A stretch of 64,000 nucleotides of DNA from an uncultured Alphaproteobacteria bacterium (lineage in GTDB: Bacteria > Pseudomonadota > Alphaproteobacteria > RF32 > CAG-239), in NCBI GenBank assembly GCA_949297665.1, contig CASFTO010000090.1, forward strand, positions 33,378-97,377, written 5' to 3'. A model generated the notes under the pieces. That model was not told where the DNA came from. It did no database searches and saw only the letters and a program-made list of their open reading frames with translations. The translations under genes and the position numbers were made by a program. Shown here one piece after another: positions 7,705-53,355 of the stretch; positions within the stretch are counted from its first letter, which is position 1; each line of letters starts with the position of its first letter.

Positions 7705-9051
7705 ATGAATATAACTCAAGAATCAATAACTATAAAAAAATATTCTCTTGTTAAAGGCATACTTACTAATTCTTGTAATAAAAAATTTTTTAATCAAATA
7801 GATGCTCTTATTTTAAAAAAATATTTTGACAATGCTTACGAGTATTCCCTAACAGAAAATATAGAAAGAATTAATGCTCATAATTTATCGTTTAACGATA
7901 TCAATAAAATTATAGATAATTTTATGTGTTGCGTTGAAAATCTATCTATTTTTCACAATCGTAGTTTATTTGAAATGGTAAAACTTTCTTTTTTGCCTTC
8001 GAAAAAATTAAATAGAGTTATTTCAATTGATACTTACGCTAAATTGGCAGCATATTTACATTATGTTTCACATGAAACAAATAAATTAAGTTTTGATTTT
8101 TTAATCCTAAGAATAACCGATAATTTATTATTAAAAATAAAAAATATTAATAATACAGATTTATCATCTACTTATAATAAATTAAAATCTGCTATCTTGG
8201 ATAAAATGATTATCTACGCTTATACCCCAGAAAAAAGAGGAAATGAAGCAACTATTTTATGTTGGATTGATAGATTATTATATGCTGTTATTGAAAAAGA
8301 AATAGATCTAGATTCTTTTATCATTTTATCTAAAAAAATTTTAGAAATAACGTCTAAATCAATTTATATTTATTGGAAGTTAATAAATGCTATCGACTAC
8401 CTATTATCTCAAAAGGATTATCATTCTTTCTCCAGTCTTAGAAAATATAAATCAGATTTGCAAAAATATATTGATGAAAAATATTTATATCTCAATTTAT
8501 CAACGGATGAATTGCAAAATATCTTCGTTAGTCTTCTAGCTAAACAAAATATTGTAAAAGAAGATTATTATTCTTTTTTTGAAGTATTAGCATCTTTTGC
8601 AAAAAAATCAGCTAGTAATAAATTATTTTGCCTTAAGTTATGTGACTATTTATTATATTTTAACCAGAAAAAACAAATCTTTGGTTATCGCTTTATTCGT
8701 AAATATTTTGTAGATGTATTACTTTCGTTATTTCATAAAAATGATTTGATAAATGTAAAAAATAAAGAACTGCAAATGCTAATTGAATTGTGGTTTAATG
8801 ATGCTTTTTTTTGTTTTGAAAGAAAAAGGTTGCTTTTTAGTATTGTTAATATTCTTAAATCTATTAATACTAATGATGCTAAATTAAGTCATAATAATTT
8901 TTATAAATATTGTGATATTTTAGATTATATTTTAGCAACCAGCCATGATAATGACTTTGCTGATATTATTGATTTTTTAGCTTTCAATAATGAAAATAAA
9001 AGCAAAATTGCAAAATACTTTAAGCTCACCAATTTGCGCAAAAATATTTAA
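7705..9051 (+). CDS. Hypothetical protein, very AT-rich, Asn/Lys/Ile/Leu-rich, no recognised domain
   Basis: 448 aa intact ORF, diverging from mnmG across a 164 bp AT-rich spacer. Composition is much more AT-rich than the neighbours. Its stop codon is embedded in a copy of the TTTAAATACA motif. Confidence 0.55.
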   Translation: MNITQESITIKKYSLVKGILTNSCNKKFFNQIDALILKKYFDNAYEYSLTENIERINAHNLSFNDINKIIDNFMCCVENLSIFHNRSLFEMVKLSFLPSKKLNRVISIDTYAKLAAYLHYVSHETNKLSFDFLILRITDNLLLKIKNINNTDLSSTYNKLKSAILDKMIIYAYTPEKRGNEATILCWIDRLLYAVIEKEIDLDSFIILSKKILEITSKSIYIYWKLINAIDYLLSQKDYHSFSSLRKYKSDLQKYIDEKYLYLNLSTDELQNIFVSLLAKQNIVKEDYYSFFEVLASFAKKSASNKLFCLKLCDYLLYFNQKKQIFGYRFIRKYFVDVLLSLFHKNDLINVKNKELQMLIELWFNDAFFCFERKRLLFSIVNILKSINTNDAKLSHNNFYKYCDILDYILATSHDNDFADIIDFLAFNNENKSKIAKYFKLTNLRKNI

Positions 9052-9059
9052 ATACACCG

Positions 9060-10448
9060 TTATTTTCCTATACAAAAACTTCCAAAAATATTGTTTAGTA
9101 TTTCACTAACTTCAACACATCCTGTTATTTTTCCAATAGCTCTGCAGGCAAGTCTGATATCCTCCGTAGCAAGTTCTATTTCTTTATCTAAATTAAAAAT
9201 CTCAAGATTTTCTAGACACTCTTCAAGAGCCTCCCTATATCTCATTCTGGTTATTAAACAATTTGAAGATAAAGAAAAATTATCTTTTATAGTTTCTATA
9301 ATGGCAGTTGTCAGAATATCAATTCCTTGATTGTATTTTGCAGATATTTTTATATGGTTCTTTTTTTCTATATTATTCTTAAGTGATACTTTATCGATTT
9401 TATTTGCTACATAAAATACCTTTCCGTGAAAATCTTTTAGAGCTTTAAATTCACTGTTTTTATTCGTAGAAGCATCATATAATGCGATTACGATATCGGC
9501 TTCGGATATTTTTTCTTTAGCAATTTCTATTCCTTGTTTTTCTATAGGATTCTCAGTTTCTCTTATCCCGGCTGTATCAGTTATTATTACAGGATACCCC
9601 CCCATATCTAAATTTATATCTATTGCATCACGCGTTGTACCGGCTATATCCGATACAATAACAGCGTTTCTTTTAACCAATGCATTTATTAAACTTGACT
9701 TTCCCGCATTCGTTTCTCCGGCAATTACTATGCGAAAACCATTTCTTAAACGCTCATTAACATTGTTTTTTTGTAAATGTTTTGCTATTTCTTTTTTCAC
9801 TTTAAATACAGTGTTTAAAATATCTTCACTCAAATTTTCAGGTATATCTTCTTCCGGGAAATCAATAAATGCTTCAAGATATGTTAAAACTTTTACCAAA
9901 TCTTCACGCCATGATGTATATAAATATCTTAAGTTTCCTTCCATTTGTTGCAATGCATATTTTTGCTGCATAGATGTTTCTGCATCAATTAAATCAGCAA
10001 GACCTTCTGCCTCCGTTAAGTCCATTTTTTGATTATAAAACGAACGTTTTGAAAATTCTCCAGGCTCAGCTAATCGAACATTATCAAATTCACTTAGCGC
10101 ATCCAAAATGCTTGATAGTACAGCTTTTGAACCGTGACATTGTATTTCGGCAATATCTTCGCCTGTAAAAGAATAGGGGGCCTTAAAGTATATAACCAAT
10201 GCTTTATCCAAAAGTTCTTGTGTATTCTTTTTCTTTATGTCGGTAAAGTAAGCATGGCGTTGCTTAATCGTTGCAATATTTATATTTGTCATTTGCGATA
10301 TTACATTCAGAACCTCTTCACCTGAAATTCTTATTACGGCAACACCTGACTTTCCATAAACAGTCGATAAAGCATATATTGTTGATGAAGACATTTTTAC
10401 TCCTTTTCTTTTTTTTCTTATAAGTAGCTTTTTTTGTATATTACGCAA
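9060..10448 (-). CDS. mnmE: tRNA modification GTPase MnmE (TrmE)
   Basis: G-domain motifs GETNAGKSSL and DTAG; C-terminal CIGK tetrapeptide at the very end. Confidence 0.9.
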   Translation of the reverse strand: MRNIQKKLLIRKKRKGVKMSSSTIYALSTVYGKSGVAVIRISGEEVLNVISQMTNINIATIKQRHAYFTDIKKKNTQELLDKALVIYFKAPYSFTGEDIAEIQCHGSKAVLSSILDALSEFDNVRLAEPGEFSKRSFYNQKMDLTEAEGLADLIDAETSMQQKYALQQMEGNLRYLYTSWREDLVKVLTYLEAFIDFPEEDIPENLSEDILNTVFKVKKEIAKHLQKNNVNERLRNGFRIVIAGETNAGKSSLINALVKRNAVIVSDIAGTTRDAIDINLDMGGYPVIITDTAGIRETENPIEKQGIEIAKEKISEADIVIALYDASTNKNSEFKALKDFHGKVFYVANKIDKVSLKNNIEKKNHIKISAKYNQGIDILTTAIIETIKDNFSLSSNCLITRMRYREALEECLENLEIFNLDKEIELATEDIRLACRAIGKITGCVEVSEILNNIFGSFCIGK

Positions 10449-10525: not shown

Positions 10526-11533
10526 ATGAATTCGGTTCGTATTGCTTTCTTTGATATTGCTAAATTTATTGCCATGATGATGGTTATTTTAGGACACTTT
10601 GGTGTACCGGATATAAATCGATTTGTTTTTACTTTTCATATTCCTCTTTTTTTTCTTATCAGTGGATATTTTTTTACCCCTTATGAAAAAACTTTTTCTC
10701 TTTTGAAAATTAAAGCCAGGCAGCTTCTTGTTCCCTATTTGACTGTCATGTTTGCTGTTATTTTTATTTATATCTGTCAAAATTTTCTCGAAGGATATTC
10801 GGCTAAAAATACACTAATAGGGGTTATGGATTATTTTATCGGCTATTTATATGGTAGCGGTTATATTGATGACTTTTTAGGACAGCATATCGAAATTGTC
10901 GGACCGATTTGGTTTTGTTTAGCTCTTTTTTGGGATTTTATTTTACTTAATTACTTCTTAAAAACTAAACATCCTTTTGTGGGAATCTTATTATGTTTTA
11001 CGGTTGGATATGTATCAAGCTTTTTTATATGGCTTCCGCTTAGTATTCAATCTGCTCTGACATCTTTGCTTTTTTTCTATTTGGGATATCAATCTAAAAT
11101 TCACGATTTTTTCAATAAATCTATCCATGTGTCGCGAATTTTACCCTTATTGTGTATTTGGGGGGTTGGATTAAGTTATGGTAGTCAATTTCTAATTGTG
11201 CAAAATTTTGCGGTTTCTTTAGTTAGTGATGTTATTGTTGCTCTCGCCGCTTGTTATTTGGTTTTACTTTATTGCCAATGGTTAGAACATAATACTAAAT
11301 CTGCAAAAATTATGGCTTTTTTGGGGAGATACACAATTGTTATGCTTTGTTTTCATAGTATTGATGTCAATATTATGCCGTGGAATGAATATTTCAAAAC
11401 GCCAAATACAACCAGTACTGTTATTTTGATAAAAATATTGATTACTTTTATTAAATTTTTGTTTCCTATATTTGGCGCTTTAATTGTTGCAAAATCTTCA
11501 ATATTAAGGAAATTCTTTGCTTTGAAAAATTAG
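10526..11533 (+). CDS. Acyltransferase 3 family integral membrane protein (OafA/OpgC-like)
   Basis: Multi-TM protein with N-terminal [18 protein letters not shown] and FFLISGYFF signatures of the acyltransferase_3 family. RBS AAGGAG precedes the ATG at 10526. The ORF track starts earlier at 10505. Confidence 0.75.
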
Positions 11534-12783
11534 CTGTTCATATTATCAAAGAAATCGCGGTTATCTTTCGATTGACGCAACTTATCAAGTAAAAATTCCA
11601 TTCCGTCGGTCATACCCATTTGCATCAAAACACGGCGCAATACCCACATTTTTGTTAAAGTTGCTTTATCAACCAGTAATTCTTCTTTTCTGGTGCCTGA
11701 ACGTGTTATATCAATTGTCGGGAATAATCGCTTATCCGTTAATTTTCTATCCAAGATAATTTCTGAGTTACCTGTTCCTTTGAATTCTTCAAAAATAACT
11801 TCATCCATTCTTGAACCGGTATCTATCAAAGCGGTTGCAATTATTGTTAAAGAACCTCCTTCTTCAACATTTCGAGCTGCACCTAATAATCTTTTCGGGC
11901 GTTGTAGAGCATTCGCATCTACGCCACCCGTTAAAACTTTTCCAGATGATGGTAAAACCGTATTATAAGCTCTACCTAAACGAGTTATTGAATCCAACAA
12001 AATGACAACATCTTTTTTAGTTTCAACCAAACGTTTTGCTTTCTCTATAACCATTTCTGCAACTTGCACATGACGAACAGCTGGTTCATCAAAAGTTGAC
12101 GATATAACTTCTCCTTTAACTGAACGTGTCATATCAGTAACTTCTTCGGGGCGTTCGTCTATTAATAAAACTATTAAGTAAATTTCCGGATGATTTATTG
12201 CAATGGCATGCGCTATATTTTGCAACATTACCGTTTTACCAGTTCTAGGCGGAGCGACGATTAATCCGCGTTGTCCTTTTCCTTGCGGTGATATTAAATC
12301 AATAACTCGTGTTGTATAATCCTTTTCTCCGCAAATTATATCAAAATTCAGTTTTTCCGTCGGATATAGCGGTGTTAAATTATCAAAATTTATGCGCAGT
12401 TTAGATTTTTCCGGATCATCGTAGTTGATTGTATTTATTTTAGTTAGCGCGAAATATCTTTCATTTTCTTTTGGGGCTCTAATTTCGCCTTCAACAGTAT
12501 CTCCGGTTCTTAATCCATAGCGTTTAACTTGTTGAGGGGATACATATATGTCGTCTGCTGATGCTAGATAATTTGATTTTGATGAACGTAAAAAACCAAA
12601 ACCGTCTTGCATTACTTCTATAACACCATCGCCATAAAGTATGTGATCGTCTTCAGCAACTTTTTTCATAATGGCAAAAATTAAGTCTTGAACACGCATG
12701 GATGATGCGTCTTCTACTCCCAACTCTTCCGCTTGACTTAAGAGTTGTTTGGGAGATTTATCCTTTAAATCTTTTAAATGCAT
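11530..12783 (-). CDS. rho: Transcription termination factor Rho
   Basis: 417 aa; Walker A PPRTGKT; RNA-binding N-terminus; high similarity pattern to Rho. Confidence 0.95.
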
Positions 12784-13298
12784 GGATTAAACCTATTGGG
12801 TAAGAATTTTTTAAGAATTTAATGTTAGTTTCTTTATAAGAGTTTTTTTTAAGATGTCAATTTAAAATGTTTTTTTGAAAAGTTTTGTTTTTTCTTTCAA
12901 AAGGGGGGTAGTTTTAGGTGATGTCGAAAAGTTATAAACAGGAAAAAGTGCCAAACATTTATTTTTAAATAATTTTTTTGTTATTTGTTTATCCTTGTTA
13001 ATTGTGTTGATAACTTTTTTGTAAACAGTTTTTTGCAGATTTTTTTGTAGTTGTTTAAAAGGCTGTGCAGGACTCCAAAAATTTGTTTTAAAATCAATTT
13101 TTTGATTAAATCGTTTTTCTTGTGGGTAAAGGTAACTTATCAACATATTTCACAAGATGGAATAAGTTCCTAAAAAATGTTTATAACTTGGGTTTATTTT
13201 TTGGCTTAATGGTGATTATTTGTTAATTGTTTTTTAAACAGTTTAGTTATGCACAGAGTTGCTTCTTTTTGTGCATAAAAATAAAATTTGAGGATGAC

Positions 13299-13871
13299 AT
13301 GATTTTTGTTGCTATTACGGGTTCTATTGGATGTGGCAAGACAACAGTTGCTCATATCTTAAGAAAACTAGGTTATTTGGTTTATGATGCGGATAAATGG
13401 GTGAAATTTTTATATTTTAAACAAGATTTTTTGTGTGAAATTCAGAAAAATTTTCCGCAGGTTTTTGTGAATGGAATTTTTAATAAAAAAATGTTGCGCA
13501 CTGTTGTTTTTCAAAATCCTAAACAATTGAAAATTCTTGAAAATCTAATCCATCCTTTTTTAACAAAAAAATTACGACAAATTATTCGTTATCGGCGTAA
13601 TGAAGGAATTGTTTTTTTTGAAGCGCCACTGCTGTTTGAATTAGGATGGGATAAGTTTTTTAATTACGTTATTGTAGCTGATGTGGAATATGAAATTCAA
13701 AAAGAACGAGTTATGAAAAGAGATAAAATTTCTGAAGATGAATTTATTAGAATCAATTCCTTACAAATGCCTAGGTGTGACAAAATTTGTCGTGCAGATA
13801 TGGTAATTGATACTGGGGTGGGTTTAGATAAATTAAGAAGAAATATTGTACAGATGTTGGGAGTTTTTTGA
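13299..13871 (+). CDS. coaE: Dephospho-CoA kinase
   Basis: P-loop ITGSIGCGKTT directly follows the ATG at 13299 with RBS GAGGA. The ORF track extends this to 13227 over a hairpin, which is unlikely to be real. Position upstream of dnaQ is typical for alphaproteobacteria. Confidence 0.85.
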   Translation: MIFVAITGSIGCGKTTVAHILRKLGYLVYDADKWVKFLYFKQDFLCEIQKNFPQVFVNGIFNKKMLRTVVFQNPKQLKILENLIHPFLTKKLRQIIRYRRNEGIVFFEAPLLFELGWDKFFNYVIVADVEYEIQKERVMKRDKISEDEFIRINSLQMPRCDKICRADMVIDTGVGLDKLRRNIVQMLGVF

Positions 13872-37811: not shown

Positions 37812-40448
37812 CTAGCTCACTTTTTTCTTTTCAGGAATAAAGTTTTGGTCGAGCATAATATTTTCAACAGCTAACTCTGTTGATGGTTGGTATGCAATAC
37901 CACTTTCTATAATGTTTCCAACGTTTAATAGGTCAGAATCGTTAGATTTTAAGCAAGAAATTGTTTTTTCATCTGCTTTGATTACCAGACTTAAAACAGG
38001 GTTCTTTTGAGATTTATTCTCAATGGTCTTTTGCTTACGAATTTCTGTAGAAACGGTAGAAATTGTGTTGTACAGAAGAGCGTTTTCTGCACTAATAGAA
38101 TCTAAGCAACTTAATGATGTCCAAAGTTCTTTGTGAACAGAAATGTCTGTTGCTTTTTTCCATGGACGTGCTTGATATACTTCTTCAGTAATGAATGGGC
38201 AGAATGGAGCTAACAATTTGATAAAGGTATCAAGTGAGAGCTTTAAGGTTGCGATTGCTGAAGAGTTATCTTCGGAGTATGCACGTTTTTTTACAATTTC
38301 AACATAGTTATCGCAGAAATCCCAGAAACGTGTTTCTATTGCATCAAGAGCTAATGAATAGTCGTAGTTTTCAAAGCTCTGTTTTGCTGATTTTATGGTG
38401 TCTGCCAAATTCTTAATCCAAGATTTATCTAAGCTATTGGTTATATCATTCAGATAATCGGCAGATGTTGAATTGCCAACAATCATAAATACAAATTTGC
38501 TGGCGTTGTACATTTTTACAACCAACTTACGACCTTGTTGCATCATCTTTTCTTCAAAAGCCGTATCCGCACCGAGTTTTGCTTTGGCTGCCCAATAACG
38601 AACAGCGTCGGCAGAGTGATTTTCAATCAAATGCATCGGCGTTACAACGTTTCCTTTGGATTTGCTCATCTTTTTACGGTCTGGATCAAGGATAAAACCA
38701 CTGATGAGTGTTTTGTACCAAGGAATTGTGTTTTCGTGCATTAAGCTTTTGGCAATTGTGTAGAAAGCCCAAGTACGAATAATGTCGTGAGCTTGCGGGC
38801 GAATATCAAACGGCATAGATAAATTTGAGTTATCTTTTGCCATAGCCATTGCGATTTGTGGTGTTAAAGAAGATGTTGCCCATGTATCCATAACATCAGG
38901 GTCTCCGGCAAATCCGTTTGGTTGGTTTCTTTGAGCTTCTGTATAGCCGTTTGGAGTATCTGCCATTGGGTCTATAGGAAGTTGGTCTTTTTCTGGCAAA
39001 ATAACGCTATTATAATCAATATTTCCGTTAGCATCTACTTTGTACCAAACAGGGAATGGAACGCCAAAATAACGTTGACGGCTAATGCACCAATCTTGGT
39101 TTAATCCTTCGGTCCATGTTTCATAACGATGTTGCATATATGCCGGTAACCATTCAATTTTGCGTCCAGCGGAGAGCATTTCTTGTTTCATATCCATCAA
39201 GTTGATAAACCATTGACGAGATGGCACGAATTCAAGCGGTAAATTACCTTTTTCATAGAATTTTACCGGATGCATAATTTTTCTGGGTTCGCCGATTAAG
39301 TAGCCTTGTTCTTTTAACATTTCGGCAACTTTCTTTTTAGCGATATGCGCAGGCAAACCAATTAATTGATTAAAGTTCTGTTGAGCTTTTTCTTTATTAA
39401 GCGTAGTGAAAGGACCTTCGCCGTAGGTGATGTTCATGATTTTGCCATCAAGACCGATGATTTGCTTAATCGGCAGACCGGATTTTTTCCACCAAGCAAC
39501 GTCGGCGGCATCACCAAAGGTGCAGACCATCATAATACCGGTTCCTTTGTCTTTTTCAGCGTGTTCGGATGCAACAATCGGAACAGGAATATCAAACAAC
39601 GGAACAATGGCTGTTTTGCCGAATAAATGTTTGTAACGTTCATCATCCGGATGAGCCACAATAGCTAAGCAAGCGGCTAAAAATTCCGGACGAGTGGTAG
39701 CGATAGTAAAGGTTTCGTCGCTGTCTTTAACACTAAAGCGAATATCGTGGAAGTAACCCTCCATTTCTTTATCTTCAACTTCGGCTTGAGAAACAGCGGA
39801 TTTAAATGTAACATCCCACATAATCGGAGCTTCTACGGCTACGACTTTGCCTTTTTTGTATAAATCCAAGAAGGATGCTTGAGAGATTTTTATGGATGTC
39901 GGACTGATTGTGGAATAAGTCAAATTCCAATCATAAGAGTGTCCGATACGACGGAAAACGTTTTCAAAGATTTTTTCATCTTCTGCGGTTAGGGTTTCGC
40001 AGGCTTCAATAAAGTTTTTGCGGGAAATTTCTTTGCGTTCGTCTTTGCTGTTTTCAATATGAACAGGTTTGAAATTCGGGTCATAAGCAACTTTGGGGTT
40101 GCAAGCGATGTTATAATAGTTTTGAACACGGCGTTCTGTCGGTAAGCCGTTGTCGTCCCAGCCGATTGGGTAGAACACGGATTTTCCCTGCATGCGTTGA
40201 TATCTGGCAATAATATCGGTTTGAGTATAGCTGAAAATGTGACCGATATGCAAAGAGCCGGAGACGGTTGGCGGCGGGGTATCTATCACAAAACTGTTGT
40301 CACGGCTTTGTGTGGCATCATATTTATAAACCTCGTTTGCGCTCCAATATGCGTCGCAACGTTTTTCTATTTCTTCGGCATTAAATTGACTATCTAATCC
40401 TTGTTCTTCTTTATAAGACATTGTTTCGTTTACTCCAATAAAAATCAA
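37812..40448 (-). CDS. valS: Valine--tRNA ligase
   Basis: 878 aa; HIGH (SLHIGH) and KMSKS motifs; class I editing-type aminoacyl-tRNA synthetase architecture. Confidence 0.95.
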   Translation of the reverse strand: MIFIGVNETMSYKEEQGLDSQFNAEEIEKRCDAYWSANEVYKYDATQSRDNSFVIDTPPPTVSGSLHIGHIFSYTQTDIIARYQRMQGKSVFYPIGWDDNGLPTERRVQNYYNIACNPKVAYDPNFKPVHIENSKDERKEISRKNFIEACETLTAEDEKIFENVFRRIGHSYDWNLTYSTISPTSIKISQASFLDLYKKGKVVAVEAPIMWDVTFKSAVSQAEVEDKEMEGYFHDIRFSVKDSDETFTIATTRPEFLAACLAIVAHPDDERYKHLFGKTAIVPLFDIPVPIVASEHAEKDKGTGIMMVCTFGDAADVAWWKKSGLPIKQIIGLDGKIMNITYGEGPFTTLNKEKAQQNFNQLIGLPAHIAKKKVAEMLKEQGYLIGEPRKIMHPVKFYEKGNLPLEFVPSRQWFINLMDMKQEMLSAGRKIEWLPAYMQHRYETWTEGLNQDWCISRQRYFGVPFPVWYKVDANGNIDYNSVILPEKDQLPIDPMADTPNGYTEAQRNQPNGFAGDPDVMDTWATSSLTPQIAMAMAKDNSNLSMPFDIRPQAHDIIRTWAFYTIAKSLMHENTIPWYKTLISGFILDPDRKKMSKSKGNVVTPMHLIENHSADAVRYWAAKAKLGADTAFEEKMMQQGRKLVVKMYNASKFVFMIVGNSTSADYLNDITNSLDKSWIKNLADTIKSAKQSFENYDYSLALDAIETRFWDFCDNYVEIVKKRAYSEDNSSAIATLKLSLDTFIKLLAPFCPFITEEVYQARPWKKATDISVHKELWTSLSCLDSISAENALLYNTISTVSTEIRKQKTIENKSQKNPVLSLVIKADEKTISCLKSNDSDLLNVGNIIESGIAYQPSTELAVENIMLDQNFIPEKKKVS

Positions 40449-40507
40449 ACTGTTGCAGATTTTAGCAAGAGCTTATTTAAAAGTAAAGGATTTAAATGGT
40501 TTTGAAT

Positions 40508-40880
40508 GAGCGGTTTAAGCGAAAAAGGCGATTTTTTGAGATTGTGGGGCAAGGGAGATTTTGAGGTTTAAAGTCTATTTGTTTAAAAAAGCGGAGTCAA
40601 ATTGACGGAATCTACAAAAAAGTATTGAAAACAATAGAAAAAGATGTTATAGTTAAGATGTGAATTTATATTTAGGTGTTTTGAATTATTTTAGAGTTTA
40701 TTATGCAAGTGGTCTTTCGGGATTATTTACTGATAACTTCTCTGGAAGAATTTGAAATGCCTTTTTTATGTTGAATTTTTAATTTAATATCCATATGAGA
40801 GCAACAAATTTTTTCTTTAAAACAGCCTTATGTGCTGTTTTTGCATTGGTGGCGATAGCCATTAATGCTCAGAAGATTGT
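40508..40880 (+). repeat. Direct repeat copy 1 (promoter + 5' leader + signal-peptide coding) shared with 41723-42095
   Basis: Roughly 370 bp at about 95% identity by eye; includes identical Met-Arg-Ala-Thr-Asn-Phe-Phe-Phe-Lys-Thr... signal peptides. Confidence 0.9.
40625..40653 (+). promoter_or_regulatory. Sigma70-like promoter TTGAAA-N17-TATAGT inside repeat copy 1 (the identical element in copy 2 is at 41841-41869)
   Basis: Hexamers and spacing read from the sequence; lies about 140 nt upstream of the ATG. Confidence 0.4.
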
Positions 40881-41646
40881 TAATGGAGTGTCTTTGACCA
40901 AGAAAGAGGTCAAGGAACTCTTAGTGAAAGATCCCTCTATGAGAATTTCCATGGAGGAAAAAGAAATCTCTCGCGCGGCAGATTCTATCCGCGTAGAGAG
41001 AAAGATCGCGTACACACGCGATAATTCTTTTTTCTTTTATCGGGATACAATCTCCCGATACGTTGGGAATTCAAATGAAATTGATTTTGCCACGAAGGAA
41101 GCCGTGCTTCGTGGTGAAAAAGAAGTCCGCTCAAGCGCACAGCGTGCGGACGGAACCAGAATTAACGGTATCTATGTATCTGCTCTGGGAGGAGCGGATT
41201 ATGTGGATAAGACGCTGAACGCCAAGGCAGGTGTTCGCGTTGGTGTGAATTTTAAGCGCCTTCTGCTTGAAGTGGAAGGAGCTTATTCCACCAGCGCGCA
41301 TACTTCTCGCTCCACCTTGAGTGGGAAGTATGACATCATTGCCGTAAGTGGCAATGTAGGATATAAGTTCTGGCAAGACCGGAACTATCGTTCCTATATT
41401 GCTGCTGTATTGTCTGCCGGATATGCCCTGCAGACATCAAGCGGCTCGGATGATGTCGCCAGAACCCAGAATTACGGGTTCATTGGGGCGTTGAATCTGC
41501 GGGGAGCTTGGTCGTTTGCCCCTAGCTGGCTTCTCTTCGGAGAAGTTGGTGCCACCCTGAAGCCGGAGGTGTTCCATACGGAAGGATGGCAGCAGATGGA
41601 CAACATTGGTCCGTGTGCCGCTCTAGGGCTGACCTACCTCTTCTAA
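40795..41646 (+). CDS. Outer-membrane beta-barrel protein (paralog 1)
   Basis: Signal peptide MRATNFFFKTALCAVFALVAIAINAQK; C-terminal ...LGLTYLF; GC-rich body. Confidence 0.75.
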   Translation: MRATNFFFKTALCAVFALVAIAINAQKIVNGVSLTKKEVKELLVKDPSMRISMEEKEISRAADSIRVERKIAYTRDNSFFFYRDTISRYVGNSNEIDFATKEAVLRGEKEVRSSAQRADGTRINGIYVSALGGADYVDKTLNAKAGVRVGVNFKRLLLEVEGAYSTSAHTSRSTLSGKYDIIAVSGNVGYKFWQDRNYRSYIAAVLSAGYALQTSSGSDDVARTQNYGFIGALNLRGAWSFAPSWLLFGEVGATLKPEVFHTEGWQQMDNIGPCAALGLTYLF

Positions 41647-41722
41647 AAGACCACTTTATGAAACAGCAGATTTTAGGAATTCCCTAAAGTTTGCTGTTTC
41701 TTTTTGTTTTAAAAGGATTTTT

Positions 41723-42095
41723 TGAGCGGTTTAAGCGGAAAAGGGCGATTTTTTGAGATTTTAGAGAGAGGGGGAATTTGAGGTTTAAAGTCTATTTGTT
41801 TAAAAAAGCGGAGTCAAATTGACGGAATCTACAAAAAAGTATTGAAAACAATAGAAAAAGATGTTATAGTTAAGATGTGAATTTATATATTAGGTGTTTT
41901 GAATTATTCTAGAATTTTATTATGTGGTGGTCTCTTAGGGATTATTTACTGATAACTTCTCTGGAAGAATTTGAAATGCCTTTTTTATGTTGAATTTTTA
42001 ATTTAATATCCATATGAGAGCAACAAATTTTTTCTTTAAAACAGTCCTCGTGGCTGTTTTTGCATTGGTGGCGATAGCCGCTAGTGCTCAGAAAG
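41723..42095 (+). repeat. Direct repeat copy 2 of the promoter/leader/signal-peptide cassette
   Basis: See copy 1. Confidence 0.9.
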
Positions 42096-43024
42096 TGGTT
42101 AAAAATATCAATGTACGCGACACCACAGCGTGCGTTGCATATTTAAGTGAGAACTTAAGAGACACTATTGCGTCAGTGTCTCGTTGTGAGAGAAATGACA
42201 CCGTGTTCGTGAAAACGACGCGCGTGTTTGTAAAAAACAACGCTGTCGTTTTCCGGACAGACAGCGATGTCTATACACTAGATCCGGAATATCTGGCAAA
42301 GAAGGCTGAAAATGCTGCTTTGCTGGATACCCTCTACAAGAAGAGCGTTGGAGCTCTCTTTGTAGAGAAAGTGAAATCCGCAGGCGAGGAAAACAAAAGA
42401 GACACTTACTTCACGGAGGTAGGTGATTCTTTAAGAATTCCGCACGCCTCTGCGGACAAATACGGTGCGTCATTGGAAGTCTCTGGCGGTTGCTTGTTCT
42501 CCGAAACGGTGACAAGCCCGCTGATCAGCGTCGGCTTTGAATATTCCGGCTCATGGTGGGCTGGGATTTTAAACGCCGAGATTGGCTGGAACAAGTATAA
42601 TAAGAACGCGGTGAATGCCGGAAGTTCTTATTTAACTTACAGCACCGAACTCTTGGGTGCTGTACAGCCGTTCAAGCTCAACAAGGCCAACACCGCCAGA
42701 TTGTTTCTGGTCGGTGGTGCCGGCTTCCAGTGGTATTCCACTGACTCCAAGCCTTGGTTAGGCGAGGATGGTCAGTGGTACGATTTCCGCAGCGGCGGAA
42801 ATTCACCGTATTGGACGGCAGGTCTCCGCTTTGAGTGGCGGAAATTTGCCACTGGCAATAGCTGGACGGTATCAATACTTTACCGTCAGCTGACAGGTTC
42901 CGGAGTCATCCAGAACGCTTCTCTTGAAAGAGAGAATGGCGTGATGGTGAAGGTCGGATACTCGTTCGGTCTTTGCCGGAACAAGGTTGGTTCCGTTAAG
43001 GAGTCAAAGGCACTGGCTTACTAA
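42014..43024 (+). CDS. Outer-membrane beta-barrel protein (paralog 2; mature domain unrelated to paralog 1)
   Basis: Signal peptide MRATNFFFKTVLVAVFALVAIAASAQK; Gly/aromatic-rich strands; GC-rich body. Confidence 0.75.
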   Translation: MRATNFFFKTVLVAVFALVAIAASAQKVVKNINVRDTTACVAYLSENLRDTIASVSRCERNDTVFVKTTRVFVKNNAVVFRTDSDVYTLDPEYLAKKAENAALLDTLYKKSVGALFVEKVKSAGEENKRDTYFTEVGDSLRIPHASADKYGASLEVSGGCLFSETVTSPLISVGFEYSGSWWAGILNAEIGWNKYNKNAVNAGSSYLTYSTELLGAVQPFKLNKANTARLFLVGGAGFQWYSTDSKPWLGEDGQWYDFRSGGNSPYWTAGLRFEWRKFATGNSWTVSILYRQLTGSGVIQNASLERENGVMVKVGYSFGLCRNKVGSVKESKALAY

Positions 43025-43185
43025 TAATTGCAGGGAAAGATGAGGGCGTATGCTCTCGCTTTCTCTGCTTTTTTTATGGTTAAAAAGGGGATTTTTGAGT
43101 GTTTTTAGGATTATAGCGCGCGATTTTTGTTGTTTTAGACGGAAAAATAGGGTATAATTCTATTCAGAACTAAAATTATTTAGAT

Positions 43186-43800
43186 ATGAAGAAGAATTTT
43201 TTCGCAGTCATGGCAGCGATAGTTGTCATCTGCTCGGCTTTTGTTGGAAATGCGTCTGCACAGTGTCTTTACCGCTATGATTACGGTTATGGCGGGGGCG
43301 GTTTATTTGGTGAAGGAGCTAATTTCTACGCCGGATTTGGCGCAGGTGCCGCTCTGGTCAATGACCTTGCTTCTCCAACATTTAGCGCGCGTTTGGGCGT
43401 AGAAGCAGGACTCTTTGTGGCAGAGTTAGAGGGAAGCTATCTCTCTATCAATTCCGTTTATGATGATGGCTTTGAACCCGAAACAAACACCCTCTCTACC
43501 ATGACGGTGGGGGTAAACGTTGGGCTTAATATTTTAGCTTCCTCCGTGGGGCTCTTGTCCTTGATGCTCCATACGGGGTATGCACTGCAAGAGGAATGGT
43601 ATCATGGTGGTTATTATGACTATTATGGTCATGCCTACTATGGGCGTTATTATATCGGAGTCGGCTTAAACGGTTCCGTCAATCTGACGAATCGCTTGGC
43701 TCTCTTTGCAGAGGCAAGGTATCAGTCCATCCCGATTGACGGATGCGGAGAAACGAAATGGGGAGGTGTTCTCTCCGGCGGACTCCGTGTCTATTTCTAA
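43186..43800 (+). CDS. Outer-membrane beta-barrel protein (third, small Gly/Tyr-rich)
   Basis: Signal peptide MKKNFFAVMAAIVVICSAFVGNASA; C-terminal ...GLRVYF; a -10-like GGTATAAT upstream. Confidence 0.7.
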   Translation: MKKNFFAVMAAIVVICSAFVGNASAQCLYRYDYGYGGGGLFGEGANFYAGFGAGAALVNDLASPTFSARLGVEAGLFVAELEGSYLSINSVYDDGFEPETNTLSTMTVGVNVGLNILASSVGLLSLMLHTGYALQEEWYHGGYYDYYGHAYYGRYYIGVGLNGSVNLTNRLALFAEARYQSIPIDGCGETKWGGVLSGGLRVYF

Positions 43801-43963
43801 ATTATGTTGAACTCTTTTTAAGCGGTGGGAGAAATCTCGCCGCTTTTTTGCGCTCGCTGCTTTTTGTTTTTTTGATGTGGCTTTTTTGTTAGGTCGGACT
43901 TGAAAGAAGTTTGACGGTGATTATATCAACAGGGTATCGTTTTAATTTTGGAGGATGTTGTAC

Positions 43964-44281
43964 ATGAATAAATTGTTTATGGGGCTTTTGGCTATGGCCG
44001 CTTTGACACTCATTGTGACAAAGGCTATCGCCGGTGCCAGCAATACAAATAATAATGCGGCAAATGCTGCGGCTAATGCCGATAACGGAGGAGTCATGAT
44101 TATCGAAACTTATTCGGCATCTTCGGTTGCTACTCCGGGGAATGCTGATGGTAATAATGATATGCAACCACTGCCCGGCGATCCAGGGGTTGAAGTTGCA
44201 CCACTTGATTCTTCTGCCGCTCAACCGATTATGGTTGAAGAAGAGGATGTGATGATTCAACAAACAGAGGATGGTGAGTAA
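43964..44281 (+). CDS. Small secreted acidic low-complexity protein
   Basis: RBS GGAGG upstream. Signal peptide MNKLFMGLLAMAALTLIVTKAIA followed by an Asn/Ala/Asp-rich and Glu-rich tail. Confidence 0.5.
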   Translation: MNKLFMGLLAMAALTLIVTKAIAGASNTNNNAANAAANADNGGVMIIETYSASSVATPGNADGNNDMQPLPGDPGVEVAPLDSSAAQPIMVEEEDVMIQQTEDGE

Positions 44282-44477: not shown

Positions 44478-46160
44478 TTATTCTTTGTTTTTCAAAGCTT
44501 CGCCTAAAGCGTCACCTAAAGTAGAACCGGAAGCGTTTGAAGCTGAATATTCTTCAATTGCTTTCTTTTCTTCTTCAATCTCATAAGCCTTTACAGAAAC
44601 ACCTAATTTTGCGTTTTTGCGATCAACAGAAGTTAATTTTGCTTCCAAAACGTCACCTTCTTTGTAGCTTAACGGATCGTTGTTTTCTTTAGATAAATCT
44701 GCTTTCTTAATTGTTGCAGCAATGCCTTGAACTGTTACTTGAACACCTTTTTCATCAGCACCGGTTACGATTGCTTTAACAATGTCTCCTTTTTTCAAAG
44801 ATTCTAATGTCATGGCAACGTTGTTTTCAGACATTTGTTTAATGCCCAAGCTGATGCGCTCTTTTTCTACGTCAACATCAATGATTTTTGCTTCAATTGT
44901 TTGACCTTTGGTGTAATCTTTAACAGCCTCTTCGCCGGATTTTTCCCAAGAAATGTCAGACAAGTGAATCATACCATCAATTTCGTCAGACAAACCAATG
45001 AACAAACCAAATTCGGTGATGTTCTTAATTTTGCCTTCGATAACAGATCCTAATGGATGTTCTTCAATGTATGCAGCCCATGGATTTGGTGTGCATTGTT
45101 TGATGCCCAAACTGATACGGCGTTTTTCCGGATCAACTTCAAGAACTTTAACTTCAACTTCTTGTGATGTTGAAACGATTTTACCAGGATGTACGTTCTT
45201 GCGTGTCCAGCTCATTTCTGATACATGAACAAGACCTTCAATGCCGTCTTCGAGTTCAATGAATGCACCGTAATCAGTGATGTTGGTTACTTTTCCTTTG
45301 TAGATTTCGCCGACTTTATACTTGTCTGCAACAGCTTGCCATGGGTCATTTTCCAATTGTTTCATGCCAAGGCTGATACGTTGTGTATCTTCATTGAATT
45401 TGATAACTTGTACTTTTACGGTTTGTCCTAATGAAAGTACTTCTGCAGGATGATTGATTCTCTTCCATGAAATGTCAGTAACGTGTAATAAACCGTCTAC
45501 ACCGCCCAAATCGATGAATGCACCGTAATCAGTTAAGTTCTTAACGATACCTTCTAATACGGAACCTTCTTTGATGGTGTCTATTAATTCAGCGCGAGCT
45601 GATGCTCTGGTTTCTTCTAACACAACTCGACGAGAAACAACGATGTTACCGCGTACTTTGTCCATCTTCAAAATTTGGAACGGTTGTGAAATTCCCATTA
45701 GAGGTGTGATGTCTTTAATCGGGCGGATATCAATTTGTGAACCCGGCAAGAAAGCAATCGCACCATTCAAATCAACAGTGAAACCGCCTTTAACGCGACC
45801 GAAGATTACACCGTTTACTCTTTCGTTGTTGTTCATCATCTTTTCAAGGTCTTGCCATACTTCTTCACGGCGCGCCTTTTCACGAGATAATACGATGTTG
45901 CCGTCTTTGTCTTCGTATCTGTCTACCAATACTTCTACAACGTCGCCAACTTTTAATTCATCGTTTCTTCCGAATTCGCGAAGCGGAATGCGGCCTTCTG
46001 ATTTCAAACCTACATCAACAGTTGCGAAATCGTCTGTTAAACGAATGATTGTTCCTTTCATAACTGTGCCAACAATGCCTTTGTTGCCGAATTGTTCATT
46101 CAACAATTCTTCAAAATTTTCAGTCATTTCAGGAATTTGTATTTCTGCAGTATTTGCCAT
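44478..46160 (-). CDS. rpsA: 30S ribosomal protein S1
   Basis: 560 aa with six tandem S1 domains. Confidence 0.95.
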   Translation of the reverse strand: MANTAEIQIPEMTENFEELLNEQFGNKGIVGTVMKGTIIRLTDDFATVDVGLKSEGRIPLREFGRNDELKVGDVVEVLVDRYEDKDGNIVLSREKARREEVWQDLEKMMNNNERVNGVIFGRVKGGFTVDLNGAIAFLPGSQIDIRPIKDITPLMGISQPFQILKMDKVRGNIVVSRRVVLEETRASARAELIDTIKEGSVLEGIVKNLTDYGAFIDLGGVDGLLHVTDISWKRINHPAEVLSLGQTVKVQVIKFNEDTQRISLGMKQLENDPWQAVADKYKVGEIYKGKVTNITDYGAFIELEDGIEGLVHVSEMSWTRKNVHPGKIVSTSQEVEVKVLEVDPEKRRISLGIKQCTPNPWAAYIEEHPLGSVIEGKIKNITEFGLFIGLSDEIDGMIHLSDISWEKSGEEAVKDYTKGQTIEAKIIDVDVEKERISLGIKQMSENNVAMTLESLKKGDIVKAIVTGADEKGVQVTVQGIAATIKKADLSKENNDPLSYKEGDVLEAKLTSVDRKNAKLGVSVKAYEIEEEKKAIEEYSASNASGSTLGDALGEALKNKE

Positions 46161-52209: not shown

Positions 52210-53355
52210 ATGAAAGAATGTAAGGTGTTTATTTTAGCTTTATTGTGTTTTATGGGGACGGAAAATGCCGGTGCGGAAAGTTTAATATCTGAGTATCAGC
52301 AGTTTAAAAATAATCTTAATCAAAAATACGGGTTTGATTATAATGTTGATGTTTCCGTATTAGGACAGCGAACCAGTCCAAGTGGTAAAAATAATGCGGT
52401 TCAAGCATATATTTATCCCGAATTTTCTTGGACGACTTTTGATAATCATTATGGTACCGGGACTTTAAATTTTGCTTATACAATTATTCGTTACGGAAAT
52501 CATAATGCAAATGATTTAGCGGGTAATTCCGGCTTTGTTACGGGAATTAATGATTATACCAATGACGAAAATCAGTTTGATGAACTCTATTATACTTATC
52601 AATTACCGGCGAATTGGAATTGGTTAACTTTTGCTCTCGGACAATTTCCTCTCTATAATTTTGACGGGACAAATTATGATTCTAATCAGCAAGTTAATTT
52701 CTTAAATGATTCTTTGGCACAAAACGCTTCGGCTTCATATTCTGATGCCGGTTTGGGTGGGTATGTGCAGATTACGCCTAATGATGAATGGAACTTTACG
52801 TTTGGTGGACAAGATGCTACAAATGTTGAGGCTCCCAGTATCCGTTTTAATCATTTGGATGAAAATCATTATACAACATTTGGATATGTTGCGTATACTC
52901 CCACTATTAAAGGTTTAGGGGATGCGGAAATTTCTTTGTTGGTATATAATCAACCGGCTGTTACAGAACAGCCTCAGACAACTAATGGGTGGTCGCTTAA
53001 TTTATCTCAAAATATTGGGGAAAAATTTAGTGTTTTTGCTCGTGTAAATGAAGTTAGCGGTAGTATGGAAGAAATTCGACAATCTTGGGTATTGGGAGGT
53101 GTTTATAACAATCCTTTAGATAGGAACCCTTTGGATCAAATAGGTTTAGCGTATGCTTATAATAAAATCGATGAAGCGGCTGTCGGTGAACAAATTTCTC
53201 ATAAGGCTGAACAAATTATAGAGGCGTATTGGGCGTGGGGAATTGGTGATATGTTGACGATTACTCCTGATGTGCAGTTGTATATTAATCCGGCGCTTAA
53301 TCAAAAATCTGATTATGGGGTGGTTACCAGTCTGCGTGCAACTGTGTTCTTTTAG
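52210..53355 (+). CDS. Outer-membrane porin (possibly OprB-like carbohydrate porin family)
   Basis: Signal peptide, beta-strand-rich sequence, C-terminal ...LRATVFF. The OprB-family assignment is tentative. Confidence 0.65.
   Translation: MKECKVFILALLCFMGTENAGAESLISEYQQFKNNLNQKYGFDYNVDVSVLGQRTSPSGKNNAVQAYIYPEFSWTTFDNHYGTGTLNFAYTIIRYGNHNANDLAGNSGFVTGINDYTNDENQFDELYYTYQLPANWNWLTFALGQFPLYNFDGTNYDSNQQVNFLNDSLAQNASASYSDAGLGGYVQITPNDEWNFTFGGQDATNVEAPSIRFNHLDENHYTTFGYVAYTPTIKGLGDAEISLLVYNQPAVTEQPQTTNGWSLNLSQNIGEKFSVFARVNEVSGSMEEIRQSWVLGGVYNNPLDRNPLDQIGLAYAYNKIDEAAVGEQISHKAEQIIEAYWAWGIGDMLTITPDVQLYINPALNQKSDYGVVTSLRATVFF

Follow-up and report, generated by a model that had tools for sequence, protein, structure and literature searches.

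The window, the whole 64-kb stretch of DNA that we analysed, has a GC content of 0.358, and within it four plus-strand genes at 40795-44281, here designated B1, B2, B3 and S4 (Table 1), stand out with GC contents of 0.46-0.49 and GC3 values of 0.39-0.54. An initial annotation had described a GC-rich island of G/C-ending codons at this position, and windowed GC and per-gene GC3 bore this out: 500-bp windows reached up to 0.51 GC in the island, compared to a mean of 0.353±0.044 and a maximum of 0.458 outside, and the barrel genes B1-B3 deviated by z-scores of +4 to +5 from the window's 51 other ORFs (GC3 mean 0.273, SD 0.051, maximum 0.362). The codon shift is general, with G- and C-ending codons both increased (AAG 0.66 vs 0.16 and CAG 0.85 vs 0.20, island genes vs the rest), GC raised at all codon positions and each base occupying ~25% of four-fold sites. 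The intergenic spacers within the island are AT-rich (GC 0.30-0.39). When segmenting the two tandem units, we observed a GC of 0.30 for the valS-B1 spacer plus signal peptide vs 0.50 for the B1 mature body, and 0.31 vs 0.50 for the corresponding parts of B2, with the step from 0.30 to 0.50 placed at the signal-peptide/mature junction, in agreement with the earlier claim of a compositional jump near 40880.

Table 1. Features of the valS-rpsA interval (window coordinates; z, GC3 deviation from the window's other ORFs)
Feature	Position	Strand	Description	Basis
valS	37812..40448	-	Conserved left flank, recombination anchor; GC3 0.36	
Cassette copy 1, non-coding part	40505..40794	+	Direct repeat; GC 0.30	
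Cassette copy 1, invariant 24-nt motif	40567-40590	+		Cross-species alignment
Cassette copy 1, promoter-like site	40625-40653	+	TTGAAA-17-TGnTATAGT	Promoter scan
Cassette copy 1, leader	~40674-40762 (long hairpin)	+	Leader ~140 nt; hairpin followed by U-run	Consensus fold, compensatory changes
B1	40795-41646	+	GC 0.482, GC3 0.493, z = +4.3	
Terminator-like hairpin 3' of B1	41660..41700	+	Intrinsic-terminator-like, 18-pair stem and T-run	
Cassette copy 2, non-coding part	41722..42013	+	Direct repeat	
Cassette copy 2, 24-nt motif	41784-41807	+		
Cassette copy 2, promoter-like site	41842-41870	+		Promoter scan
Cassette copy 2, leader hairpin	~41892-41981	+		Consensus fold
B2	42014-43024	+	GC 0.488, GC3 0.543, z = +5.3	
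Terminator-like hairpin 3' of B2	43041..43063	+		
B3	43186-43800	+	GC 0.486, GC3 0.473, z = +3.9	
S4	43955-44281	+	GC 0.456, GC3 0.385, z = +2.2	
rpsA	44478..46160	-	Conserved right flank; GC3 0.33	

Presumably highly expressed genes have a low GC3 (enolase 0.23, PPDK 0.25, rpsA 0.33), indicating that the GC3 excess of the island is not an expression effect. Another barrel outer membrane protein (OMP) in the window, an OprB porin (52210-53355), has a GC3 of 0.27; GC3-richness is thus not a general OMP property, and this surface protein does not share the island's composition. GC3 ranks B2 > B1 > B3 > S4 > valS/rpsA > rest and follows local diversity, and rpsA carries a small GC3 halo of +0.029 beside the island vs -0.021 in a clade without an adjacent island.

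Structural modelling, for B1 and B2, and profile homology, for B3, support the proposal in the initial annotation that the island encodes three beta-barrels. AlphaFold2 models of moderate confidence (mean pLDDT 66-68) predict that B1 and B2 each consist of an N-terminal domain and an OmpA/NspA-like 8-stranded barrel. In B1 (283 aa), the signal peptide, which forms the end of an upstream cassette (to ~40883), is followed by a low-confidence N-terminal domain and a predicted barrel at residues 125-282, for which Foldseek returned the OmpA transmembrane domain, Ail and NspA with TM-scores up to 0.68. In B2 (336 aa), the models place an alpha/beta domain at residues 27-113 after the signal peptide, then a linker, the barrel (151-319) and a short C-terminal helix, with Foldseek matches to NspA, the OprF N-terminal barrel, OmpW and OmpX. 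The N-domains of the two proteins are homologous (HHalign probability 98.7%), and B1 and B2 are tandem paralogues. B3 (204 aa) comprises a signal peptide and a barrel without the N-domain, with a Tyr/Gly-rich variable insert; its barrel assignment comes from profile homology to the B1 barrel (HHalign probability 98.5%), which suggests a barrel-only paralogue, and its 25 homologues are nameless except for one 'hypothetical protein'. The barrel proteins gave no significant match in Pfam/NCBIfam, the top entry being OMP_b-brl_2 at 13.9 bits vs a cut-off of 27. S4 (108 aa), kept beside rpsA in 27 loci, has a signal-peptide-like N-terminus, a pI of 4.05 and a mature part with 14 D+E and 0 K+R, consistent with the small acidic secreted protein that had been proposed.

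B1 and B2 have in common an AT-rich upstream cassette of ~380 bp (40505-40883 vs 41722-42102, 92-95% identical), confirming a further element of the initial annotation, and it comprises a conserved motif, a promoter-like site, a structured leader and the signal peptide. The motif is confined to this locus in the window and the nine metagenome contigs scanned. Signal peptides are identical within a genome and different between species, their types assort independently of body types, and the comparison shows that the cassettes of both paralogues are homogenised within each genome. On the valS side, DNA homology to relatives is 88-96% and reaches the cassette; the true valS start is likely the ATG at 40421, which gives the 869 aa also found in homologues.

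Sampling around rpsA showed the locus to be syntenic, from valS/smr to rpsA, in ~25 related species, and the same held for every additional contig that we examined. The family is small, with 17, 44 and 25 matches in 5.8 billion proteins and 77 representatives in 1.84 billion, and all members with genomic context lie at the same locus in the same clade. The viral/phage contigs searched contained no copies of the family, the locus itself yielded no integrase, transposase or other mobility gene, tRNA or att-like repeat, and the window holds no further family member or fragment. Metagenome assemblies fragment at the locus. The hosts are probably a genus-level set of uncultured gut Alphaproteobacteria, with the block at 40795-44281 as their resident hypervariable surface-protein locus.

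The relatives' loci compared with the window include L005, L006, L007, L023 and L085. Between the window and L006, DNA homology spans valS and the cassette up to 40886, exactly where the signal peptide ends and GC jumps; it is lost over the B1 body and returns at the stop codon of B1 (41646), from where it reaches 42177-42181, is lost over the B2 body and is back at 43020. B1 alleles fall into two classes (88-95% and 41-48% identity). Compared with hosts ~99% identical in flanking proteins, the window's B1/B2 reach just 43-45% identity, and allele identity among near-identical hosts is 43-48%. Between the window and L006/L007, dS is 0.14-0.31 in rpsA and valS and saturated in B1 and B2, where dN is ~0.55; between L006 and L007, it is 0.07 in rpsA vs 0.86 in B2 and 1.52 in B1. 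The alignments show that the B1/B2 mature-coding bodies have been swapped as whole units, with breakpoints at the signal-peptide end and the stop codon. Together, the breakpoints, the dS of flanks vs bodies and the independent assortment of signal peptides show that recombination has indeed grafted the bodies onto expression signals that stay conserved. One allele type is common to the window, L005 and L085 and is an outgroup to the alleles of more distant hosts; among these three loci dS is uniform at 0.24-0.57 over 14 genes and barrel dN/dS is 0.24. The window allele has passed down vertically since its lineage diverged from L005/L085; its dS matches that of the flanks, and its GC3 has not changed. 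Variation runs across the whole protein, including the N-terminal domain (periplasmic by topology), with no concentration in predicted loops, a spread that does not support a simple picture of surface loops under immune or phage selection.

The alleles are GC3-rich in ~30 related species whatever the host composition, with a barrel GC3 of 0.47±0.09 over hosts at GC3 0.19-0.56 (slope 0.24, r 0.28). One GC-rich host has barrels GC-poorer than itself, rumen-type contigs have a barrel GC3 of 0.55-0.67, alleles of AT-rich ruminant-type hosts reach 0.55-0.68, above the highest sampled host (0.56), and L023 holds two barrel pairs with different GC3 in a single host; alleles overall range widely, from 0.32 to 0.68. 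These comparisons show that GC-richness is a stable family trait in every species, decoupled from host GC3, and not the fading imprint of a donor. When polarising barrel changes by parsimony, which is biased by outgroup composition, we counted 24 W>S vs 23 S>W, giving an equilibrium GC3 of 0.54, where the actual value is now 0.53. Per GC site, the S>W rate was 0.097 in barrels vs 0.217 in host genes (p ~0.06 vs the host-rate expectation, by an approximate calculation on these 47 changes), and in type-B alleles W>S was at or above S>W.

The initial annotation had proposed that barrel bodies were acquired horizontally and grafted onto native AT-rich signals. The grafting holds, at 40886 and 42177-42181; recent acquisition from a foreign, GC-richer lineage is largely refuted and very improbable. 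Atypical composition at all codon positions, mosaic breakpoints at the cassette/body junctions and the phylogenetic incongruence of the window-type allele would suit a foreign donor, but the locus is syntenic and GC3-rich in all relatives examined, including a host GC-richer than its own barrels, the two protein searches (5.8 billion and 1.84 billion) gave no homologue outside the clade or locus, and the absence of family copies from viral contigs and of mobility features from the locus argues further against it. The window allele, vertical since the L005/L085 split, likewise bears no signal of amelioration toward host composition. Less probable still is programmed antigenic variation, in which silent copies at other sites of the same genome would donate bodies by gene conversion, as they do for msp2/p44, pilE/pilS and vlsE. 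The layout resembles an expression site, the body being variable while the promoter/leader/signal-peptide cassette before it and the 3' junction after it are conserved, and assemblies break here, yet neither an additional family member in the window nor a cassette motif beyond the locus was found in the sequence scanned, every family member with context sits at this locus, and alleles are stably inherited between species.

A clade-internal allele pool under no special GC force, with bodies moving between congeneric species through homologous recombination and a composition mirroring GC-richer congeners or an ancestor instead of the current host, is unlikely. Alleles have demonstrably been replaced between species-level lineages, barrel GC3 depends very little on the host and is close to the 0.44-0.56 of the GC-richer members, and the two unlike barrel pairs of L023 also fit; however, the barrels of AT-rich ruminant-type hosts exceed the host maximum, no near-identical allele was found between distant hosts, and the window-type allele kept a GC3 of 0.49-0.57 over vertical descent of dS ~0.3 in AT-rich hosts, with W>S and S>W changes balanced. 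Direct selection for GC-rich coding, whether for mRNA stability, for translation or for avoiding AT-rich internal promoters or silencing by AT-binding nucleoid proteins, is if anything less likely. It would account for a GC step that exactly matches the coding body, next to AT-rich spacers and leader, for family-wide GC-richness regardless of host and for S>W changes at half the host rate, but the low GC3 of enolase, PPDK, rpsA and another porin, a codon shift that is indiscriminate and unlike the usual optimal-codon pattern, and the wide range of allele GC3 all speak against it.

Our leading inference for the cause of GC-richness is a recombination-linked GC bias. In bacteria, GC content correlates positively with recombination (PMC4450053; PMC11879095), through GC-biased gene conversion (gBGC; Lassalle et al. 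2015, PMC4450053) or through selection being more effective (PMC11879095). The four genes are probably transcribed independently, B1 and B2 each from its own cassette copy, and the recombination that exchanges the B1/B2 bodies works through the conserved cassettes and flanks. The proteins may be abundant and exposed at the cell surface as targets of phages or host immunity, for instance, and balancing or diversifying selection on such targets could maintain the old allele classes. Recombination-associated bias, either gBGC or more effective selection for GC, would uphold GC-richness and act strongest where diverged alleles recombine. The GC3 excess of +0.2 to +0.35 seems large for a recombination effect, and the sharp boundaries and AT-rich island spacers fit gBGC only if conversion hits the mismatched bodies and the spacers are constrained.

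As in described recombination-associated GC enrichment (PMC4450053, PMC11879095), GC3 peaks here where recombination evidence and diversity peak, independently of optimal-codon usage and with a small halo in a flanking gene; the effect differs in being very large and limited to three or four genes, and the fixation bias is weakly supported. Anaplasma msp2/p44, Neisseria pilE/pilS and Borrelia vlsE likewise place a variable surface-protein segment between conserved 5' and 3' junctions, whereas here no silent donor copies were found in available sequence, variation lies between lineages and not demonstrably inside a single clone, and it extends over the entire mature protein instead of a central hypervariable region. 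With 8-stranded barrels such as the OmpA transmembrane domain, OmpX/Ail, Neisseria NspA/Opa and the alphaproteobacterial Omp25/Omp31 type, the proteins have in common a signal peptide, a predicted antiparallel barrel (Foldseek TM up to 0.68 to NspA and the OmpA transmembrane domain) and, in B1 (...TYLF) and B3 (...RVYF), a C-terminal aromatic residue. Several small 8-stranded barrels are phage receptors, adhesins or antigenically variable. Unlike these proteins, our family occurs in a single clade at a single locus, and B1/B2 carry an extra ~90-aa N-terminal domain ahead of the barrel, whereas the periplasmic domain of OmpA is C-terminal. Replacement-type flexible genomic islands and serotype-like loci (O-antigen, flagellin and porin alleles) are swapped by homologous recombination in conserved flanks. 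The present locus likewise holds a fixed position between core genes, with deeply diverged alleles in near-identical backgrounds, sharp homology breakpoints, no mobility genes and assemblies broken at the locus. Most islands of this kind are AT-richer than their genome, but this locus is GC-richer with a host-independent GC3; here, only the mature-protein coding body is exchanged, and the promoter/leader/signal-peptide cassette that bounds it exists in two copies, one per tandem paralogue, which are homogenised with each other.

The four same-strand genes between valS and rpsA, three predicted barrel genes (B1, B2 and B3) followed by a gene for a small acidic secreted protein (S4), differ sharply in base composition from the rest of the window, whose overall GC is 0.358. 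The 51 remaining ORFs average 0.273±0.051 in GC3 and reach 0.362 at most, and against these B1, B2, B3 and S4 reach z-scores of +4.3, +5.3, +3.9 and +2.2, respectively. When GC was computed per segment, the valS-B1 spacer together with the signal peptide gave 0.30 and the B1 body, the part encoding the mature protein, gave 0.50, after which the B1-B2 spacer and signal peptide fell to 0.31 and the B2 body returned to 0.50. Given these z-scores and this sharp alternation of segments, the initial annotation was correct in describing a GC-rich island with a compositional step near 40880, a pattern far beyond chance. The island genes also exceed all other genes in GC2 (0.43-0.44 compared to at most 0.41), and their proteins are enriched in Gly, Ala and Arg and depleted in Lys and Ile. 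Codons ending in G and those ending in C are both more frequent (AAG 0.66 vs 0.16, CAG 0.85 vs 0.20, GAG 0.42 vs 0.16), and at four-fold sites each base makes up ~25%. High expression was ruled out as the cause of the GC3 excess, as enolase (0.23), PPDK (0.25) and rpsA (0.33) lack it and the codon shift is indiscriminate; a general property of outer-membrane proteins was likewise ruled out by OprB, with a GC3 of 0.27.

Features of the island and of its duplicated expression cassette
Feature	Position	Length	GC	GC3	Remarks
B1	40795-41646	283 aa	0.48	0.49	
B2	42014-43024	336 aa	0.49	0.54	
B3	43186-43800	204 aa	0.49	0.47	
S4	43955-44281	108 aa	0.46	0.385	
Direct repeat	40505-40883 vs 41722-42102	~380 bp			92-95% identical; spans the region 5' of B1 and B2 and their signal peptides
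Invariant motif TTTAAAGTCTATTTGTTTAAAAAA	40567-40590 and 41784-41807	24 nt			5' of the -35 element, one per cassette copy
Promoter-like site TTGAAA-17-TGnTATAGT	40625-40653 and 41842-41870				In each cassette copy
Leader		~140 nt			One per cassette copy
Long leader hairpin, then U-run	about 40674-40767 (pairing to about 40762) and about 41892-41986				

Elsewhere in the window, a very AT-rich orphan ORF of 448 aa (7705-9051; GC 0.22, GC3 0.15; no Pfam match) sits between mnmG (5693-7540) and mnmE (9060-10448). Cumulative GC skew is lowest at about 11000-13300, beside the cluster of parB (3055-3945), mnmG and mnmE, so that this stretch is probably the replication origin region. On the island's left flank, the mechanically called valS ORF starts at a TTG at 40448 (878 aa), and the start in homologues and in called genes is the ATG at 40421 (869 aa).

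Reading the protein sequences, we observed hydrophobic N-termini ending in A-x-A-Q (MRATNFFFKT...AQK in B1 and B2, MKKNFF...ASAQ in B3), putative signal peptides as expected for the 8-stranded barrel class. AlphaFold2 models of moderate confidence (mean pLDDT 66-68) gave B2 an N-terminal alpha/beta domain (residues 27-113) joined by a disordered linker to eight strands (151-319), and gave B1 eight confident strands (125-282; pLDDT 75-93 across most of the barrel) preceded by a poorly modelled N-terminal part. Foldseek matched these two models to NspA, the OmpA transmembrane domain, Ail, OmpX, OmpW and the OprF N-terminal barrel (E 3e-6 to 1e-3, TM up to 0.68). Profile comparison with HHalign revealed that the N-terminal regions of B1 and B2 are homologous (98.7%) and that the B3 barrel, whose status as a barrel rests on this match, is homologous to that of B1 (probability 98.5%); B1, B2 and B3 are therefore paralogues. 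All three are predicted to form a closed eight-stranded barrel, a fold that would imply an outer-membrane location. A C-terminal aromatic residue is present in B1 (...LTYLF) and B3 (...LRVYF), and B2 ends in ...KALAY behind a short extra helix. With S4 being a small secreted protein of pI 4.05, the earlier description of three barrel proteins and an acidic secreted protein held at this moderate model confidence. Neither Pfam nor NCBIfam yielded a significant family for any of the four proteins; the best Pfam score was that of B1 to PF13568 (OMP_b-brl_2), 13.9 bits (E 0.059) where the cut-off is 27, and B2 and B3 did not match PF13505 (OMP_b-brl) or PF13568. The barrels are of the OmpA/OmpX/NspA class by fold and outside every curated family by sequence. 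The B3 family additionally has an insert that is hypervariable, abounds in Tyr, Gly, Cys and Asp, and reaches ~40 residues in some species (example CYDDYCYDCYGYYDYGCGYG); it lies at 43560-43660 in the window (residues about 136-158) and has homologues in the relatives' loci L015, L024 and L026.

Using rpsA-centred loci of GTDB species representatives, we identified the host by sequence as an uncultured gut alphaproteobacterium with relatives among human, ruminant, rabbit and chicken gut MAGs, the more distant of which are named Candidatus Scatocola. In ~25 species whose rpsA shows 91% identity or more, the island occupies the interval from rpsA to valS or, where valS has another location, from rpsA to smr; the sole exception is L029, where it does not adjoin rpsA; the same placement was observed on further contigs found through distant family members or the cassette motif. 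The sister clade (rpsA ~85% identical) has a different rpsA neighbourhood with no family member nearby. Searches of 5.8 billion clusters recovered 17, 44 and 25 matches, and a search of 1.84 billion recovered 77 representatives; these are either unnamed metagenomic proteins or 'hypothetical protein' entries from MAGs labelled Alphaproteobacteria or Acetobacter sp., and the two 'hypothetical protein' MAG entries checked for context were both at the island locus. Many assemblies end at the island and many family members stand alone on 1-1.6 kb contigs; an exact-match look-up of B1 found only ~1 kb contigs because assemblies break at the repeated cassettes. Sampled viral contigs contained no family copies, ruling out phage carriage of the island for these contigs. 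A tRNA or integrase island was ruled out as well, as the window has no tRNA, the island ORFs of the window and its relatives include no integrase or transposase, and no att-like repeats flank the island, whose sole repeats are the two expression cassettes. The absence of tandem or TR/VR-like repeats within the island and of a reverse transcriptase between valS and rpsA likewise ruled out the target of a diversity-generating retroelement. Gene content at the locus varies among relatives: L005, L007, L008, L010, L011 and L085 carry, between S4 and rpsA, a 276-aa ORF with host-like GC3 and no Pfam match (13564-14394 in L085) that is missing from the window through an ~890 bp indel at the 44348/44393 junction, and a ruminant MAG carries a type IVb pilin-like gene with PilS/Bundlin domains inside its island (L022:12651-13301).

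The cassette motif is conserved even among species with saturated synonymous sites and, across the window and nine JGI metagenome contigs searched, is confined to the island locus; it is probably the binding site of a regulator. Within the leader, hairpin pairs are kept through one- and two-sided changes (14 cassettes, 7 species), with compensatory changes in 7 of the 44 predicted pairs across the 7 species, and the L013 leader has no U-run. Hairpin and U-run together look like a terminator or attenuator, and the leader may act in regulated attenuation or as an mRNA-stabilising leader. A conserved small ORF in the leader was ruled out by reading the alignment, as nucleotides are kept between species and the frame differs, and an Rfam scan of the island returned sub-threshold chance matches only. 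Terminator-like hairpins also follow directly 3' of B1 and B2, so that these genes look like separate transcription units.

We then compared breakpoints between the window and the loci of three relatives, L006, L007 and L009, whose flanking proteins are 96-99% identical. Homology to L006 and L009 extends from valS through the first cassette up to 40886, and homology to L007, which has the other signal-peptide type, ends at 40800. The B1 body has no homology to any of the three, and homology returns at the B1 stop (41646); the next block ends at 42177-42181 against L006 and L007 and at 42102 against L009, after which the B2 body again has no homology until a restart at 43020 (L006 and L007) or 43030 (L009). 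Against L006 and L007, rpsA and valS show a dS of 0.14-0.31 and a dN of 0.002-0.006, compared to a dN of ~0.55 and saturated dS in B1 and B2; between L006 and L007 themselves, dS is 0.07 for rpsA, 0.86 for B2 and 1.52 for B1. The window has its allele type in common with L005 and L085, among which dS is 0.24-0.57 in each of the 14 genes spanning secB to lptG, the barrel genes among them, and dN/dS is 0.24 for the barrels and 0.006-0.11 for the other genes. These alleles form an outgroup, with 40-48% identity to those of L006, L007, L010, L009 and L011, and their hosts nest among the hosts of those same loci; L006, L007 and L010 alleles in turn share 63-69% identity with the alleles of L009 and L011, whose hosts are more distant. 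Allele tree and host tree are incongruent, and database matches to the family show either 88-95% or 41-48% identity, with a gap between. Collectively, these alignments demonstrate a fixed, clade-specific locus whose bodies have been replaced through recombination, with conserved cassettes and flanks as its anchors and old, discrete allele classes as the outcome. The earlier idea of bodies grafted onto resident expression signals is supported by the breakpoints at cassette/body junctions and by saturated body dS compared to low flank dS.

Signal-peptide types and body types are freely mixed; in allele type A, one of two body classes, 77% of signal-peptide positions are variable, and 4% are fixed differences between the types. 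In most species examined the signal peptides of tandem paralogues are identical (L007, L009, L011, L012, L019, L026 and L030) or near-identical (the window, L013, L021 and L023) but different between species, with L006 as an exception, and this likeness within genomes combined with unlikeness between species points to concerted evolution of the tandem signal peptides. The N-terminal domain, periplasmic by topology, varies as much as the barrel, and the distribution of variable sites, which are not concentrated in the predicted loops, did not support loop-focused diversifying selection. On one metagenome contig (L088:283-1614), a 443-aa protein fuses a DUF4143 N-terminal part to a B1 body of the window type (95% identity across 72% of B1), a fusion that may reflect either a rearrangement at the 5' cassette or a chimeric assembly.

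Across 22 species with a host GC3 of 0.19-0.56, B1/B2-type genes have a GC3 of 0.47±0.09, and regression of barrel on host GC3 gave a slope of 0.24 (r 0.28, p 0.09). Barrels in L011 (0.42-0.47) are GC-poorer than their host at 0.56, and those of ruminant-type lineages reach 0.55-0.68 in hosts at 0.27-0.43. At L023:12182-16341, where host GC3 is 0.22, there are two barrel pairs, each with its own common signal peptide, which differ in GC3 (0.43-0.45 vs 0.32). Given that single-outgroup parsimony is sensitive to outgroup composition, polarisation of changes was redone with a singleton-based design. Synonymous changes in type A barrels then numbered 24 AT-to-GC and 23 GC-to-AT, small counts for which host per-site rates predict roughly 31 and 52, and the implied equilibrium GC3 of 0.54 is close to the 0.53 observed. 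The GC-to-AT rate per GC site was 0.097 in barrels and 0.217 in host genes, based on 47 polarised changes and on taxon sets that differ. Type-B alleles presented a similar picture with no decay. The balance between changes in the two directions, small as the counts are, gives no sign of ongoing amelioration toward host composition.

The initial annotation had attributed the GC-rich bodies to a foreign donor, and the island does display the atypical base composition and codon usage by which foreign islands are recognized. This origin is nevertheless highly improbable, as we observed no sporadic presence, mobility genes, donor-lineage homologues or amelioration: the locus is resident in relatives, its GC3 is independent of the host without decay, and the homology search for a donor lineage returned only unnamed metagenomic or 'hypothetical protein' alphaproteobacterial MAG entries and no viral copies. 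Antigenic variation from silent cassettes, as in msp2/p44, pilE/pilS or vlsE, has the slimmest chance of the explanations considered, since neither further family copies nor silent cassettes that could act as donors were found in the 64-kb window or the ±10-kb loci. Exchange within an in-clade allele pool with no GC force would be unlikely, offering no account of alleles that exceed every host in GC, and direct selection on the GC of these mRNAs is no likelier.

A more far-reaching reading, less likely than not, is a locus-specific GC-favouring process that might hold the family at a GC3 of ~0.5 (0.32-0.68) in hosts at 0.19-0.56, with GC-biased gene conversion on heteroduplexes of deeply diverged alleles as the likeliest candidate, confined to the exchanged bodies and with the duplicated cassette as recombination anchor. 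The proteins would be abundant outer-membrane components, with pressure from phages or the host sustaining their diversity, and recombination-associated GC bias would raise the GC of the bodies. We favor this bias because GC3 follows local diversity in rank (B2 > B1 > B3 > S4 > valS/rpsA > rest), because rpsA has a small GC3 excess only in the clade where it adjoins the island (+0.029±0.026, n=19, compared to -0.021±0.041, n=42, in the clade with no adjoining island), because GC sites disappear from the barrels half as fast as from host genes, and because recombination and GC are documented as related. The GC3 excess is co-located with the evidence of recombination. In bacteria, GC is positively related to recombination, and whether biased gene conversion (PMC4450053) or more effective selection (PMC11879095) is the cause is debated. 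Counting against a GC bias are the razor-sharp boundaries, the AT-rich spacers, the few polarised changes and the equally variable N-terminal domain, and the GC3 effect seems very large for a recombination-linked bias. If GC-biased conversion does operate here, the island would represent an unusually clean and large natural case of recombination-driven GC evolution in bacteria and, for outer-membrane proteins, an exchange architecture of a cassette style not described before.

The island is also a cautionary case, in that a textbook GC-atypical island is a resident locus and not foreign DNA, and composition-based calls of horizontal transfer would therefore be wrong here. The outer-membrane protein family that it encodes is undescribed and restricted to one clade of gut Alphaproteobacteria, which are abundant but uncultured, and the swapping of bodies between cassettes bears on phage-host and host-immune interactions as well as on poor assembly at the locus. 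Its host-independent GC3 provides a natural test bed for whether biased gene conversion or more effective selection raises bacterial GC. By its genomic behavior the island matches replacement-type hypervariable surface loci, with which it has in common a fixed position between conserved core genes, an allele dS far above that of the flanks, sharp breakpoints and a host-incongruent allele tree. What is unusual is that the unit of exchange coincides exactly with the mature-protein body, that the promoter/leader/signal-peptide cassette is duplicated and homogenised, and that GC3 is independent of the host and high instead of low.
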